A stretch of 64,000 nucleotides of DNA from Escherichia phage V18: sequence record NC_041937.1; one strand, 5' to 3'. The position numbers and the translations under genes were made by a program. The notes beneath the pieces are model-generated. The model saw only the letters and a list, made by a program, of their open reading frames with translations, ran no database searches and was not told where the DNA came from. Shown one piece after another: positions 1 through 64,000 of the stretch. Within the stretch, counting starts at the first letter, position 1. Each line of letters starts with the position of its first letter.

Positions 1-144
1 GTCACCTTCAAATATCAAGCAAGGACAGAAGACAACAACTACCAATTCCCGGAGTGGTGGGATGCTGTATGCGTCAGAAAATCCGCAGAATATGCAAAAC
101 ATGATGATTCGTTGGAAGAGTGGTTTAATCGGAGGTTTAAATGA
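1..144 (+). CDS. 3' end of an upstream gene, partial (runs off window start), product unknown
   Basis: Open frame from position 1 (…EWFNRRFK) ending at TGA 142-144, overlapping the endolysin ATG (ATGA arrangement). Confidence 0.35.
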   Translation, partial: VTFKYQARTEDNNYQFPEWWDAVCVRKSAEYAKHDDSLEEWFNRRFK

Positions 145-620
145 AGCTAGATAAAAATGTACAATTGAGAGCATTTTTTTCGATGATTTCACACTCAGAA
201 GGTACTGACAGGTATGGTGGCGAAGATGCTTCGTACCACATCCTTGTTGGTGGAAAATACATAGAGGATCTCAGCAGGCATCCCGGTATTTATGTCAAAT
301 TAAGACCGGGCCTTACCTCTTCAGCATTTGGCAGATACCAAATTCTGGAGAAATACGCTAAGCATTACATGAAGCAGCTTGGCTTAAGAGATTTTGGTCC
401 GGCAAGTCAAGATGCCATAGCAAAACAGTTGATCCGCGAATGTAAAGCCCTTGATGACATTTATGAAGGAAGGATCCGTTCAGCTATCTATAAATGCCGT
501 AGCCGTTGGGCAAGTTTCCCACCACCACCGGGGGCTGGTAAACTGTATGATCAGCGTGTAGAAAACATAGAGAAGATGCTGGACGTCTTCCGAAAAGCCG
601 GAGGCACAGTACTGGATTAA
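141..620 (+). CDS. endolysin, phage lambda R-like lytic transglycosylase
   Basis: 159 aa; SEGTD, GRYQ, KQLGLRDF, DAIAKQLI, WASFP and C-terminal AGGTV align by eye with lambda R lysozyme along its whole length. Confidence 0.85.
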   Translation: MKLDKNVQLRAFFSMISHSEGTDRYGGEDASYHILVGGKYIEDLSRHPGIYVKLRPGLTSSAFGRYQILEKYAKHYMKQLGLRDFGPASQDAIAKQLIRECKALDDIYEGRIRSAIYKCRSRWASFPPPPGAGKLYDQRVENIEKMLDVFRKAGGTVLD

Positions 621-899: not shown

Positions 900-1363
900 G
901 TGGAAGACGGACGTTTAATGAAGTCTGAACGCAGGCTTATTGTGCAACTGATCCCAGAAACAGCTTGGTATAATAACCTCCGAAACGCTGTGAAGGAGAG
1001 TGAGTGGGATAAGATCCGCAAGAAGTGCTATAGAGAAGCCAACTACACTTGTGAGGTGTGTGGCGGTAAAGGCAGCAAACACCCAGTGGAGTGTCATGAA
1101 CTTTACACTTTCGAAGAGGGAGTGATCCGGCTTGTCGGACTGATAGCGTTGTGCCAGATTGTCACACATCGGTGCATCCTGGGTTAGCAAATATTCGTGG
1201 AAAGTATGCTCAGGCAGTTAATCAGTTGGCTAAGGTGAATAAGATCACCAAAGGTATGGCAGAGGCGTATTACCGAGACTGCTTTGCAGAGTGGCGTGAG
1301 CTTAGTAAAGTTCCAGAGTGGAAGACTGACTTTTCGTGGATAGAGGGTTACCTTGATGGCTAA
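900..1363 (+). CDS. HNH-type zinc-finger endonuclease, reading frame interrupted near 1150-1160
   Basis: ORF 900..1187 carries CEVCGG…HPVECHELY and ends GLIALC; ORF 1151..1363 in the next frame starts PDCHTSVHPG. Joined they give the HNH signature LCPDCH; the break lies in a CC run. Confidence 0.5.
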
Positions 1364-58826: not shown

Positions 58827-59170
58827 CAGAAACCTCCCACTTCTTCAGCAAATGCAGCTGCTGTCGTCGCTGCATCCAGATAGGACTCTAGTTCACGGGA
58901 TGCACGTTTGTAAATTGAGTGGCGCATATCGTTTGGCAGTTGGTGGAAGTCCACCTCTTCACCGTTGTGGTAAACATGCACATCGGTAATTTGTCTAAAT
59001 CCGTAATAGTCAACATCAGAATCACGGCACTCTGGGTCTGGCAACTGGACAACTGCCTGAGCTTCCACAGTGAACATATCGTCAAGTTCGAAATCGATTT
59101 CAAAAGTGTATGGTTTATAACGTTTCATCATTTGATTGTGCTCTTTATTGATCAGACTTATCTTTCGCAA
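58826..59170 (-). CDS. hypothetical protein
   Basis: 114-aa ORF. Confidence 0.35.
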   Translation of the reverse strand: MRKISLINKEHNQMMKRYKPYTFEIDFELDDMFTVEAQAVVQLPDPECRDSDVDYYGFRQITDVHVYHNGEEVDFHQLPNDMRHSIYKRASRELESYLDAATTAAAFAEEVGGF

Positions 59171-60470
59171 TTAAGGTCGGGGTAAGTTTGTAATAACGGA
59201 AGCCACCACCACCTTTCCAGTTTACAGACTTAGAAATACCACCTTGATCTTCGCCATCGATCACTTTTTCCAAGCGCGGAATAATATGGGTATGACAATG
59301 ATCACCTAGCTCGATTGAGATCCAACGTCTTTTCATCTTGTGAGCTACAGCAGCAGTAGTTCCCGAACCACCGAATGAATCCAATACCAAATCGCCTTCT
59401 CGCGTACACATTTCTAAAATCCGCTTCAAAAGAGCTTCTGGTTTTTTCCCATTTTTGAAACTGACGCCGCCTTCATTTGCTATTCCATTCCAACTAATGT
59501 CTGTCCAAACATCAGTTATTAGTTCCGCAGGTTGCATCTCACCGTCAATTTCCAAAAGTCTATTGGAGTAAAAGACCATTTGCCTACCATTTGCGATATA
59601 AAATCCTTCAACATCCTCATTTGGATGTACATAAACCTTATCCCTATCTTTCTTTGACTTCTCGATAGTTTCTTTTCTCTTTATTTTAGCACCACCACCA
59701 ATTGCAACAGATTGAAATACACGTTCTGCATTATCAGTTGCGAATTGTGCTAATTCATCATCGAATGTATCAGGCAGTTTTTTCTTGGCTTCTTTTGCAT
59801 CTTTATAACCATTGGCCTTTGCAAACGCATCGGCAATACCGCACCACGTCCAATTTTTATAATGGTCATCCGGGTTTAATAGGTATTTGTTATATCCTGT
59901 ATCATACCCTTTAGGTATATAGATTTTGTTAAGCGGTTTCTGGGTGCGATCTTTTGCATATACAAGCAAAAAGTTTGCTGTGGAGAAAACTGTGGCTCCT
60001 GTTGCCTTAAATCCCGAAGGGGAATTTGTGGTCATCGATATGGTATTTAACTGATTTGCACGACCAAAAATCTCGTCCATCAAAACTTTTAAATACGCCA
60101 TTTCGCAATCATCTAAGTGAACGAATATTACCCCATCATCACTTAGAAGATTACGAATTATTTCTAACCTATCCCTCATTAAGCCCAGCCAAATGGAATG
60201 CTCCAGGCTATCATCGTAGTGCTCAAAAGCCCTTCCGGTATTGAATGGTGGGTCTATGTAAACACACTTCACTTTGCCTGCATACTCTTGCTCTAGCGCC
60301 TTCAATGCTAATAAGTTATCTCCAAAAATCAGTTTATTATCAAAAATATCGTTTTCGGTCACTTTCTGGCTGTGGTAAGACTTGCTAGAATCCTCTAACA
60401 AAATGTGCGGCTCTAACTTTTTGCGCTCGTTTTTACCTATCCAGGTAAGTTCTAATTTGGTTTTGCTCAT
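59145..60470 (-). CDS. DNA methyltransferase, beta-class N6-adenine/N4-cytosine type
   Basis: 441 aa; catalytic VYIDPPFNTG upstream of the AdoMet motif VLDSFGGSGTTAAVA (beta-class order). Confidence 0.7.
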   Translation of the reverse strand: MSKTKLELTWIGKNERKKLEPHILLEDSSKSYHSQKVTENDIFDNKLIFGDNLLALKALEQEYAGKVKCVYIDPPFNTGRAFEHYDDSLEHSIWLGLMRDRLEIIRNLLSDDGVIFVHLDDCEMAYLKVLMDEIFGRANQLNTISMTTNSPSGFKATGATVFSTANFLLVYAKDRTQKPLNKIYIPKGYDTGYNKYLLNPDDHYKNWTWCGIADAFAKANGYKDAKEAKKKLPDTFDDELAQFATDNAERVFQSVAIGGGAKIKRKETIEKSKKDRDKVYVHPNEDVEGFYIANGRQMVFYSNRLLEIDGEMQPAELITDVWTDISWNGIANEGGVSFKNGKKPEALLKRILEMCTREGDLVLDSFGGSGTTAAVAHKMKRRWISIELGDHCHTHIIPRLEKVIDGEDQGGISKSVNWKGGGGFRYYKLTPTLIAKDKSDQ

Positions 60471-60531
60471 CGTTTGGTGCTCTCCTTAGTTTTTGTGGGG
60501 AGGAGTGCCTCCCCTTTATACTCACATCTTA

Positions 60532-60873
60532 CTACTCAAGGTCTTCAGAGTCAAGCTCAAAAAGAATCAAACTGTGCATGCCTGCAGAGAGATTAACACA
60601 CCCTGCAACAATAAGGGTTTGATAGTAAGGTTCAGCACCCTCAATGTCTTCGTTAAAATCCACAACAAGGTAGTCACCTTTGTTAAAGGTGTATTTGTCC
60701 GATGTAAACGCAAAACCTGCCCAGTCCCCTACTGCAGGATCTTTATCAGTCACCTTTGTTAGCAGTAGATCTTTTTCACGAGATCTTTTAGTAAAATCGT
60801 GAATCACAACATCCTTCTCTTCAGGAGTCGGATTGCCACACACGTAGTTAACGATATTTCTCCACAAACTCAT
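60532..60873 (-). CDS. hypothetical protein
   Basis: 113-aa ORF. Confidence 0.35.
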   Translation of the reverse strand: MSLWRNIVNYVCGNPTPEEKDVVIHDFTKRSREKDLLLTKVTDKDPAVGDWAGFAFTSDKYTFNKGDYLVVDFNEDIEGAEPYYQTLIVAGCVNLSAGMHSLILFELDSEDLE

Positions 60874-62240
60874 ACGTCCCCCTCTTCTGCTCTGGTTTCA
60901 AAATCTTTCCTGACAATTTTGTCTAAGTCAGGGAATGTTGTATTGTAAAACTCTACGACTCGCGGGTCAACAATAATGTCAACTTCTCTTAGCGGACGCA
61001 ACAAGTTTATTCCTTGTATTGTCTTAACTCTACTCAAAGCGACATACGTCATCCCAGGAGAGAAAGCTCCGTTCTTTCCAAGGTCTAGGTTGTAACAATC
61101 TAGCGTAAGTCCTTGACTTTTATGAGATGTTACGGCGTACCCAGATTTCAGAGGAAGTTGCTTGTATGACCCAATCACTACCCTCTCTATAAACTTCTCC
61201 ATCTTCCTTTCTGCAATGTTGTATCTCTGAGATGGCTTATACTCGTTATTCTCCCACAACCTCTGCTCTATGTCAACCTGTGTTCCATCTTCAAGCTCTA
61301 CCACCACCGCCTTGTTCTTAAATTTAACAATCGTGGCACGTGTTCCGTTAACATAATAAGGTACTTTGTGCGTCGGGTCAACATCGTTGGCGGTTATCAT
61401 AACTTTCATGCCAATTTTCAACTTCATCTCCTGCTCAACTGGCAGGGTGGAGGGAAACTTACCCTTCATTTCACCAGTGTATACCTTCTCTGGGGCGTTG
61501 ATGGCATCATAGAACCTTCTGTTCACTTCCTCTGCTTGTTTGTTGGTGGCGCAAATTGTGAGAGCATCTGTTGGTACACCACCTTTGTAACAGCGAGCAT
61601 TAAGTTCTGCTACAACCTCTTTTATGCGACGACCCTCACGAACACAGTTGAGCATTGTGGCAAATCGAATAGACTCCTGTCGGAACTGATCTATTAGGGC
61701 TATGTTGTGGAGGTCAAGCTCTTTCCAAGATTCGGTATAGCAACACAGGTCCGTATGGTAGAAGTTGAAATAGGCTTCCTTCTCCATAGAAGAGACAACA
61801 GGAGGTGCCTGGTAAAAATCGCCAAACAATATGACCTGTATGCCTCCGAAAGGTTTGTCATTTTTTCGAAGGAAGCGGAGTTTCCTATCCATCTCTATAA
61901 ACTTATCAGCGCGGATCATAGAGATTTCATCGATAATTAGGATGGTAAATGCCTTGCTTTTCAAAGGCTTTGCTGTTTTTGCCCTTATTGCGGTCCAGTC
62001 TGACTCCATGCTCACACCTGCTGCAAGATCGAAGGTTCGGTGTGCTGTTGCTCCATTAACGTTTAAAGCGGCTACCCCTGTCGGGGCAACCGTTATGCAA
62101 GAGTCTCCATACATTGACTGGATCATGTTGATGAGATACGTCTTCCCACAACCTGCAGGCCCTGAAACGAAGACATTCTCACCACTCATGATTGCAACGA
62201 GGGCAGCATCTGTGCCTACATCATACTGCCCTTTTTCCAT
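60870..62240 (-). CDS. superfamily 1 DNA helicase, Dda/RecD/Pif1-like
   Basis: 456 aa; Walker A VSGPAGCGKTYL, Walker B ILIIDEISM, further SF1 motifs (VILFGDFYQ, GYAVTSHKSQGLTL, VALSRV). Confidence 0.7.
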   Translation of the reverse strand: MEKGQYDVGTDAALVAIMSGENVFVSGPAGCGKTYLINMIQSMYGDSCITVAPTGVAALNVNGATAHRTFDLAAGVSMESDWTAIRAKTAKPLKSKAFTILIIDEISMIRADKFIEMDRKLRFLRKNDKPFGGIQVILFGDFYQAPPVVSSMEKEAYFNFYHTDLCCYTESWKELDLHNIALIDQFRQESIRFATMLNCVREGRRIKEVVAELNARCYKGGVPTDALTICATNKQAEEVNRRFYDAINAPEKVYTGEMKGKFPSTLPVEQEMKLKIGMKVMITANDVDPTHKVPYYVNGTRATIVKFKNKAVVVELEDGTQVDIEQRLWENNEYKPSQRYNIAERKMEKFIERVVIGSYKQLPLKSGYAVTSHKSQGLTLDCYNLDLGKNGAFSPGMTYVALSRVKTIQGINLLRPLREVDIIVDPRVVEFYNTTFPDLDKIVRKDFETRAEEGDV

Positions 62241-63481
62241 TACGCCTCCTCGTAAAGAATGTCGATAGTGTTACCGTCACGATCAACTACATATTCAATA
62301 GGGTCTCCATCTTTGCGTGCTTCCGGAGCTACCACAATCTCATAGCGGCATGCACGGCACTTAGCGCTATTGTGTTGGTATGGCACACTAACCACATCTG
62401 CAGGGTCAACCATAACAGTCATTACAGTGCCGTAGCTCTTTGCATACTCTTTGCTGGCGCAGTGTAGGCCATAGGAGCACGCAGCTTCAGGATCATCCTC
62501 TACAAAGTTACGAGGCATGGATACAAAAGCACCTTGGTATTGTGGGACTTTACCACTGTGCCAATCCACCCACTTGCTGCCGTTAAACTGAACCCCTTTG
62601 TAGCAAATGATTCGACCATCTTCTGCAATCTGGATATCGTTGGCCTGCATAAAGTCGTAGAGCATGTTTACAGATTTTGCAGAAGGATTGCGTAGCAGGC
62701 GAACGAGGAATTTCACATAGCGGTCATCTAGTGTTCCGTCTGCATAATCTTTCTCAATTTTCTTTGCAATGGTGGATCGCATCTCTACACCGTAGTAGTA
62801 GAGCTTACCATCTTTCATAATCAGGTTGTCTGCAAGTGTGGTGAACTCATTCTTGCGTTCCAGCCAGACAAGGATTTCACCAATTGCCTCATCATATTCC
62901 TGAACAGAGATATGGTCGAAGACTTTCTGGTAAACTTCCTCACTTTCGCTGCGGCGAATTTCAAAAATGCCTTCGTTGCAGGTGATCTGGAGAAGTTCCC
63001 CGCAAATAACTACCAAAGGCTCGATGCTTCGAGTCTGTTGCTGAGACACACTGCTCACCACCTCCAGCACCGGATCTTTGACTTCTACTAAAGGTTCTTC
63101 TGACTTGATTGCTACTCCAGTTAACCCCACACCGTGAACAACACACAGTGGGTATACCACGCCCCAACGTTTAACGGAACCTTCGCCTAAATCTAAGATC
63201 ATGGCGTACTTACCGTTATCTTCCAGACCGTATCGAAATAAACGGGCCTCTTCGCGGGTTTCAAAATCCTCACGGGTGTAGCAGACGCTGTCACGGTCAG
63301 GATCGAACAACTCTGGGGCACCCACTGCCAGTGTCCAGGTTGTGTCGCCTTTCTCAATAGCACATGTGAAACCCTTCTTCTCAAGTTCTGCACGGCGGTC
63401 GCGTGCTTCTTTACGAGTTTTGAAGTGTTCGTAGATGAAAATCATAACTGTCTCCTTATTTGGTGTTATTCTTTGTATCAA
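62240..63481 (-). CDS. hypothetical 413-aa protein
   Basis: Long ORF, start overlaps the helicase stop; no motif I can assign with confidence. Confidence 0.45.
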   Translation of the reverse strand: MIQRITPNKETVMIFIYEHFKTRKEARDRRAELEKKGFTCAIEKGDTTWTLAVGAPELFDPDRDSVCYTREDFETREEARLFRYGLEDNGKYAMILDLGEGSVKRWGVVYPLCVVHGVGLTGVAIKSEEPLVEVKDPVLEVVSSVSQQQTRSIEPLVVICGELLQITCNEGIFEIRRSESEEVYQKVFDHISVQEYDEAIGEILVWLERKNEFTTLADNLIMKDGKLYYYGVEMRSTIAKKIEKDYADGTLDDRYVKFLVRLLRNPSAKSVNMLYDFMQANDIQIAEDGRIICYKGVQFNGSKWVDWHSGKVPQYQGAFVSMPRNFVEDDPEAACSYGLHCASKEYAKSYGTVMTVMVDPADVVSVPYQHNSAKCRACRYEIVVAPEARKDGDPIEYVVDRDGNTIDILYEEA

Positions 63482-63531
63482 TCAGCTCACGGTATTCAAT
63501 CATAGCAGGGGTGTCCCAATATTTCAAGCGA

Positions 63532-64000
63532 AAGCTAGATAAAAATGTACAATTGAGAGCATTTTTTTCGATGATTTCACACTCAGAAGGTACTGACAGG
63601 TATGGTGGCGAAGATGCTTCGTACCACATCCTTGTTGGTGGAAAATACATAGAGGATCTCAGCAGGCATCCCGGTATTTATGTCAAATTAAGACCGGGCC
63701 TTACCTCTTCAGCATTTGGCAGATACCAAATTCTGGAGAAATACGCTAAGCATTACATGAAGCAGCTTGGCTTAAGAGATTTTGGTCCGGCAAGTCAAGA
63801 TGCCATAGCAAAACAGTTGATCCGCGAATGTAAAGCCCTTGATGACATTTATGAAGGAAGGATCCGTTCAGCTATCTATAAATGCCGTAGCCGTTGGGCA
63901 AGTTTCCCACCACCACCGGGGGCTGGTAAACTGTATGATCAGCGTGTAGAAAACATAGAGAAGATGCTGGACGTCTTCCGAAAAGCCGGAGGCACAAGAC
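63532..64000 (+). CDS. second copy of the endolysin coding sequence (partial; runs off window end)
   Basis: 63532-63996 matches 144-608 by eye; lacks the ATG (CGA at 63529-63531); in-frame GTG at 63511 or TTG at 63460 upstream; diverges at 63997-63998. Confidence 0.45.

Follow-up and report, generated by a model that had tools for sequence, protein, structure and literature searches.

The predicted rIIB gene of Escherichia phage V18, its protein and its genome context

The genes rIIA and rIIB are the classic pair with which phage T4 overcomes RexAB and so can grow on lambda lysogens (PMC8594841, PMC10312443). Adler et al. found that the phages T4, MM02, EdH4, SUSP1 and N4 plate less well on RexAB-expressing cells when RIIA or RIIB is knocked down, and that the same knock-downs have no effect on the plating of these five phages on Rex-less E. 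coli (PMC11879866). RIIB moreover serves as the trigger for a CARD/gasdermin system of Lysobacter (PMC10312443), and the membrane NTPase Tmn senses RIIB via residue D219 of the T2 protein (PMC13001434). Older work on T4, as cited in PMC13001434, places RIIB in membrane-bound replication complexes as a replisome-associated, membrane-anchoring protein. Here, we analyse a stretch of 64,000 nucleotides (nt) from Escherichia phage V18 (sequence record NC_041937.1; the whole stretch is called the window below). To judge from its sequence, the source phage is an rV5-like coliphage, Vequintavirus, and a minus-strand gene at 62240..63445, whose product an earlier note on this DNA had called a large unknown protein, is rIIB, already known and annotated.

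We consider it very likely that this gene comes second, after rIIA, in the early rIIA-rIIB operon of a Vequintavirus, and that its product, together with RIIA, allows growth in RexAB cells. Acting with RIIA against Rex-type abortive-infection systems is, in our analysis, the most likely role of RIIB.

Identity, start codon and expected role of the gene

The encoded protein is 99.8% identical in amino acid (aa) sequence to ORF238 of phage rV5, which was deposited as 'rIIB protector' (ABI79303.1). That annotation dates from 2006, and more than 100 close relatives are annotated likewise. The earlier note could not assign the protein to a family and proposed profile and structure-based searches. 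The profile search gave a match to PHROG 609 (RIIB) at aa 132-375 with E=1.3e-61, and four further RIIB PHROGs also match. This is a characterised family that is not defined by replication, and the match removes the label of an unknown protein and speaks against the replication reading that went with it. A BLASTP comparison to T4 RIIB (NP_049889.1, 312 aa) shows 37% identity over 204 aa (E=4e-39), and the database protein P0001, which is identical, has a precomputed match to PF26926 (Phage_T4_rIIB). The structure-based search, with Foldseek against the PDB, returned only weak matches, which are described together with the fold of the core below.

At the nucleotide level, 118 phage records match the window region 60000-63530 at 90-99% identity. 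The gene itself is matched in 118 Vequintavirus-type records at 92-99% nucleotide identity, mostly under the label rIIB or 'membrane integrity protector', and the names used in relatives include 'RIIB lysis inhibitor', 'rIIB protein' and 'membrane integrity protector'.

The residues that characterise the family are present in the protein. Among 49 diverse members, 13 columns do not vary (N253, F265, G277, D294, G326, H328, Y334, P348, D350, V352, S353, K362 and R364); the protein has all of these and also all 32 columns that are invariant across four phage families, and C323, S324, R312, C366 and Y368 are nearly invariant in the family. The family motifs N-P-S, C-S-x-G-L-H, Y, P-x-D-V-V-S, K-x-R and Y can all be found in the protein. 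The earlier note had pointed to a conserved-looking C-terminal region, and rightly so: the strings that it quoted (GLHCAS..., CRACRY) are present and coincide with the columns that are best conserved in the family (C323 S324 G326 L327 H328 Y334 ... K362 R364 Y368).

The gene and its ribosome-binding site are located as follows.

62240..63445, minus strand: rIIB coding sequence, 401 aa plus the TAA stop at 62242-62240
63452..63457, minus strand: Shine-Dalgarno sequence AAGGAG of rIIB, with a 6-nt spacer to the ATG at 63445, read from the sequence

The longest open reading frame (ORF) at this site, 62240..63481 on the minus strand, is a mechanical maximum that counts 413 aa from the first TTG. 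The earlier note took this ORF as the gene. The ORF is real and lies on the minus strand, but its start has to be moved: translation almost certainly begins at the ATG at 63445 and not at the TTG at 63481, because AAGGAG is placed 6 nt before the ATG, the same start is annotated in rV5 and slur16, and the Met at this position is invariant in 27 homologues. The TTG would fall within the rIIA reading frame of relatives, and the Shine-Dalgarno sequence overlaps the rIIA stop codon (63458-63456). The resulting protein of 401 aa has a calculated mass of 45.7 kDa and an isoelectric point (pI) of 4.9.

A promoter-like site, TTGAAA-17-TATGAT with the TG of an extended -10 element, is located at window 63499-63527 on the minus strand, within the rIIA tail and about 55 nt upstream of the rIIB start. 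In the scan for promoters and terminators the counts equalled the chance expectation, and this site may mean nothing.

The knock-down study includes a congeneric phage, as EdH4 is a Vequintavirus, and Murica, of the same species as EdH4, has an rIIB with 93% nucleotide identity to the gene in the window. By analogy, RIIA and RIIB of V18 together would let the phage grow in cells that carry RexAB of lambda-type prophages, and RIIB would be dispensable on Rex-less hosts. The gene is interrupted by IS2 in phage BP9 (PP488543.1) and split into ORFs of 161 and 258 aa in the Logan contig SRR14695910_5003 (2571-3777), and both cases are consistent with a dispensable rIIB. The protein itself could also be a trigger for other defence systems, such as the CARD/gasdermin system and Tmn.

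Protein architecture and the fold of the core

The protein was modelled with AlphaFold2 (AF2) at full length from a 27-sequence alignment, with a predicted local distance difference test score (pLDDT) of 72, and as the core only (aa 165-401) from 49 sequences, with a pLDDT of 92.9 and a predicted template modelling score of 0.82. The following parts can be distinguished.

63320..63439, minus strand: N-terminal module 1 (aa 3-42), beta-alpha-beta-beta, with invariant R11, A14, R15 and W37
63137..63289, minus strand: N-terminal module 2 (aa 53-103), beta-alpha-beta-beta, with invariant F61, R64, E66, A67, R68, F70, D85, R93 and W94
63023..63136, minus strand: variable, disordered linker (aa 104-141), pLDDT 25-30, of different length among homologues
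62330..63016, minus strand: conserved RIIB core (aa 144-372), delimited by the PHROG 609 match, the alignments and the core-only AF2 model
62243..62329, minus strand: C-terminal extension (aa 373-401) that forms a beta-hairpin; RIIB of the Vequintavirinae type has it, T4 RIIB lacks it

The two N-terminal modules are detectably repeats of each other (E=3e-4) and have the invariant motif F-x-[ST]-R-x-x-A-R ... W in common. These Arg-rich modules are kept in 27 of the 27 Vequintavirinae-type sequences. The RIIBs of the T4 type, the Ounavirinae type and the Ackermannviridae type open instead with an N-terminal helix-turn-helix (HTH) domain; HTH families of Pfam match 6-8 of the 49 family members and do not match the protein from the window. 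The occurrence of an HTH in T4-type RIIB versus two beta-alpha-beta-beta modules in the Vequintavirinae suggests that RIIB begins with an exchangeable domain for targeting or binding, placed before a constant core, and such a module might interest workers on the rII mechanism.

The first half of the core is composed of beta-hairpins and helices and contains the NPS motif at 253-255. The second half (aa 277-372) is rich in beta-strands and contains K283, R312, C323-S-x-G-L-H328, Y334, P348-x-D-V-V-S353, K362-x-R364 and Y368, so that most of the invariant residues are located here. The core would carry the shared function of the family, most likely by acting with RIIA, an ATPase of the GHKL type, to stop Rex-type systems from firing.

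The protein is probably a cytoplasmic one, soluble or peripherally associated with the membrane, and has no convincing transmembrane segment. A transmembrane RIIB was considered and rejected: the most hydrophobic 19-mer has a Kyte-Doolittle value of 1.75 and is modelled as a strand and a loop. A zinc site formed by Cys and His residues (C323, H328, C363 and C366) was likewise rejected as a feature of the family, as C363 and C366 are not conserved; the corresponding residues are M and C in T4, and M and S in EP1. We also noted a 498-aa protein in ENA, in which tetratricopeptide repeats are fused to a C-terminus that is 99% identical to that of RIIB; it is probably a chimeric assembly.

The core is thus confidently modelled and has no close solved relative. 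Searches of the PDB sequences, both with the single sequence and with a profile, identified no relative, and the Foldseek search against the PDB gave nothing below E=0.26. The only recurrent structural neighbours, all of them weak, are proteins with the ADP-ribosyltransferase (ART) fold, which raises the question of whether the core is a very divergent domain of this NAD-binding type that modifies a host or defence component, or binds NAD or a nucleotide. About 20 of the top 60 weak Foldseek matches are ART-fold proteins from both major clades, a list that is far from random, and the same protein group also came up with the first model. Among these matches are AcrF11 (4.1), PARP15 (4.0), Tpt1 (3.6), Scabin (3.6), TreX (3.6), Arr (3.5), diphtheria toxin (3.4) and CARDS (3.3), as well as several PARPs, RhsP2, Vis, TreTu and ArtA. 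The alignments span 70-100 residues at 3-4 Å, none of them at a significant score. However, no ART family in Pfam matches any of the 49 members at E<=10, the profile search of the PDB sequences finds no ART protein, and hhalign comparisons to ModA and ModB of T4 give probabilities of 0.2-0.3%. Nor does the alignment contain a canonical H-Y-E or R-S-E triad, and the sole candidate Glu, E369, is not conserved. Taken as a statement about the modelled fold, membership in the ART group is therefore rather unlikely. The more elaborate proposal, that an ART-fold core with a non-canonical invariant set of K, H and Y neutralises Rex-type defences by modifying or binding a target to which the N-terminal domain directs it, seems to us slightly less likely still.

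The helicase, the rIIA remnant and further readings

The gene downstream of rIIB encodes a helicase, for which the following features were identified.

60870..62240, minus strand: PIF1/Dda-like SF1B helicase, 456 aa (PF05970, E=1.1e-32; phrog_325 'Dda-like helicase', E=6.4e-112)
62245..62250, minus strand: Shine-Dalgarno sequence AGGAGG of the helicase gene, within the last rIIB codons and 4 nt upstream of the ATG

The matches to PF05970 and phrog_325 agree with the earlier note in that the downstream gene is a Dda-like helicase. The note had further stated that the ORF ends exactly where the helicase gene starts, and this is borne out: the rIIB stop TAA (62242-62240) shares its last A with the helicase ATG (62240-62238), which gives TAATG at 62242-62238, with one base in common. 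Co-expression of the two genes, which the note thought probable, is plausible in view of the overlap and of their position in one minus-strand run with a 113-aa ORF and a methyltransferase gene, but the coupling is ordinary. Stop/start overlaps of 1 or 4 nt occur at about 16 of 90 same-strand junctions in a crude gene set of the window, and the overlap between rIIB and the helicase gene is not unusual for this genome.

The order on the minus strand in close relatives is endolysin (Hydrolase_2), RIIA, RIIB, helicase, the 113-aa ORF and the type-III-like methyltransferase, where RIIA is a protein of 660 aa with a GHKL-type ATPase domain (HATPase_c_3). The rIIA gene is located directly upstream of rIIB in all lineages sampled, namely Vequintavirus, Seunavirus, Straboviridae (T4, phiE142), Ounavirinae (EP1) and Ackermannviridae (CBA120). 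The helicase gene follows rIIB only in the Vequintavirinae among these lineages, and the linkage is absent in T4, phiE142, CBA120 and EP1. Since rIIA is adjacent in every lineage and the helicase gene only in one subfamily, the defining partner of rIIB is rIIA. The adjacency to the helicase gene is synteny at the level of the subfamily, and the overlap would reflect operon packing and not a dedicated machine of RIIB and helicase.

These observations bear on the possibility that RIIB is an accessory or loader of the Dda/PIF1-like helicase, translationally coupled to it and acting in replication. The 1-nt stop/start overlap fits this possibility, as does its retention, as an 8-nt overlap, in Seunavirus FENT2, in which RIIB is only 33% identical, and the older T4 work cited in PMC13001434 would place RIIB at the replisome. 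However, Straboviridae, Ounavirinae and Ackermannviridae lack the adjacency, such overlaps are routine in this genome, and rIIB is disrupted in relatives that are viable or assembled. Moreover, the rII knock-downs spare growth on Rex-less hosts in five phages, one of them a Vequintavirus (PMC11879866), and these harmless knock-downs argue that RIIB is not needed for replication. The replication role implied by the earlier note is therefore improbable, although the link reported in the older T4 work, as cited in PMC13001434, leaves some room for it.

It is more doubtful still that RIIB is a transcription factor that regulates phage transcription, the class to which Iyer et al. 2021 assigned T4 RIIB. 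RIIB orthologues have been called specific transcription factors (PMC7824862), and many family members have an N-terminal HTH, but the protein in the window has the two beta-alpha-beta-beta modules in place of an HTH, and what the family conserves is the core outside the HTH. Least credible is a 'lysis inhibitor' of the SPOR type that would bind peptidoglycan and work at the cell wall, as the match to SPOR (PF05036) is restricted to aa 8-42 and sub-threshold (19.3 bits against a gathering cut-off of 21, E=1.4e-3), and neither a periplasmic export signal nor a membrane anchor was found in RIIB, in which the first module starts at residue 3 and no hydrophobic segment is convincing. The GenBank record of phage ECML-10 names RIIB a 'SPOR domain-containing protein'.

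Upstream of rIIB, the window differs from its relatives in the following two features.

63456..63530, minus strand: rIIA remnant, the last 24 codons plus stop, 75 nt, identical to slur16 up to 63529
63532..63996, plus strand: second copy, exact and direct, of window 144-608, which is the endolysin ORF (141..620) starting at its second codon; adjoins the rIIA remnant

The stop of the rIIA remnant is placed 10 nt before the rIIB ATG. Near-identical relatives encode a full RIIA of 660 aa at this position, and there is no other rIIA anywhere within the window. At 63530/63531, the sequence switches from the rIIA tail to the endolysin copy, which is the duplicated segment that the earlier note had correctly placed next to the ORF; the two endolysin copies differ only at 63997-63998, among the last four bases of the window. 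Otherwise, window 1-63530 is collinear with normal Vequintavirus genomes, and neither the 50,697 phage records nor IMG/VR contain the 63530/63531 junction. The junction has the appearance of a 63,388-nt unit joined head to tail, by mis-assembly, a circularisation artefact or a (sub-genomic) rearrangement.

Some points weigh against a role of this RIIB as the partner of RIIA in counteracting Rex. If the junction is real and not an artefact of the assembly, RIIB would here lack its partner RIIA. The knock-down evidence on RexAB comes from other phages, the congeneric EdH4 among them, and not from V18 itself, so that its transfer to V18 is an analogy. The claim that RIIB and RIIA together block Rex is genetic and not biochemical. 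The overlap with the helicase gene is kept down to 33% RIIB identity in the Vequintavirinae, which is compatible with some functional tie. Finally, scans of RIIB with Pfam-A, NCBIfam and PADLOC gave nothing significant for the core, the copy of Pfam-A used evidently being without PF26926. Because these three libraries give no core match, the family probably looks unassignable when phage-specific libraries are left aside.

We nevertheless retain the identification of the gene as rIIB and, with the reservations above, its role with RIIA against Rex. The value of the correction lies in that neither the description as an unknown protein nor the replication reading should be carried forward.

Additional observations were made on the neighbouring genes. 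The 113-aa ORF (window 60532-60873, minus strand) overlaps the helicase stop by 4 nt (ATGA), is hypothetical in all relatives and has no match in PADLOC. A 441-aa type-III-like N6-adenine methyltransferase (window 59145-60470, minus strand; PADLOC MTase_III, E=1.5e-204) is encoded in one run with rIIB and the helicase gene. No restriction partner was seen near this gene, and the enzyme is presumably an orphan, self-protecting methylase. The endolysin gene at the other end of the window is adjoined by an HNH-type, homing-endonuclease-like ORF (window 900-1187, plus strand) that is present only in some relatives; the best matches to this segment align in two pieces, and their records carry the annotation 'putative homing endonuclease'.

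Comparison with known systems

The resemblance to the ADP-ribosyltransferase fold, as represented by AcrF11, the PARP catalytic domain, Tpt1/KptA, Arr and the diphtheria-toxin group, is a resemblance only and not membership.

T4 RIIB has a homologous core, with NPS, CSxGLH, PxDVVS and KxR..Y common to both proteins, and is likewise encoded directly after rIIA. The T4 protein has the N-terminal HTH, whereas RIIB in the window has the two Arg-rich modules, the disordered linker and the 30-aa C-terminal hairpin, and in T4 there is no helicase gene after rIIB. Residue D219 of T2 RIIB, which is sensed by Tmn, maps to a loop that has a 3-residue insertion in the protein from the window.

The RIIBs of the Seunavirus/phAPEC8 type, such as those of Enterobacter phage FENT2 and Klebsiella phage KP12 (405-411 aa), have the same architecture of modules, linker, core and hairpin, and their genes show the same order of rIIA, rIIB and helicase with an overlap. 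These proteins are only 33-37% identical to that of V18, and the inserts in their module 2 and linker are longer.

About 16-20 GenBank records numbered MG0656xx ('Campylobacter phage C5, D1, A142, ...') are 97-98% identical to the Vequintavirus phages of E. coli in this region; their Campylobacter host label looks doubtful, and a contaminating coliphage would account for it.

The closest relatives are the orthologues in rV5 (ORF238), slur16 (gp059), Murica, EdH4 and the BASEL phages. The window differs from these in that only the final 75 nt of its rIIA remain, fused to an endolysin fragment that is duplicated. In all other respects compared, they represent the same gene, with a like length of 401 aa, start and 1-nt helicase overlap, and with the same downstream genes, the 113-aa ORF and the methyltransferase.

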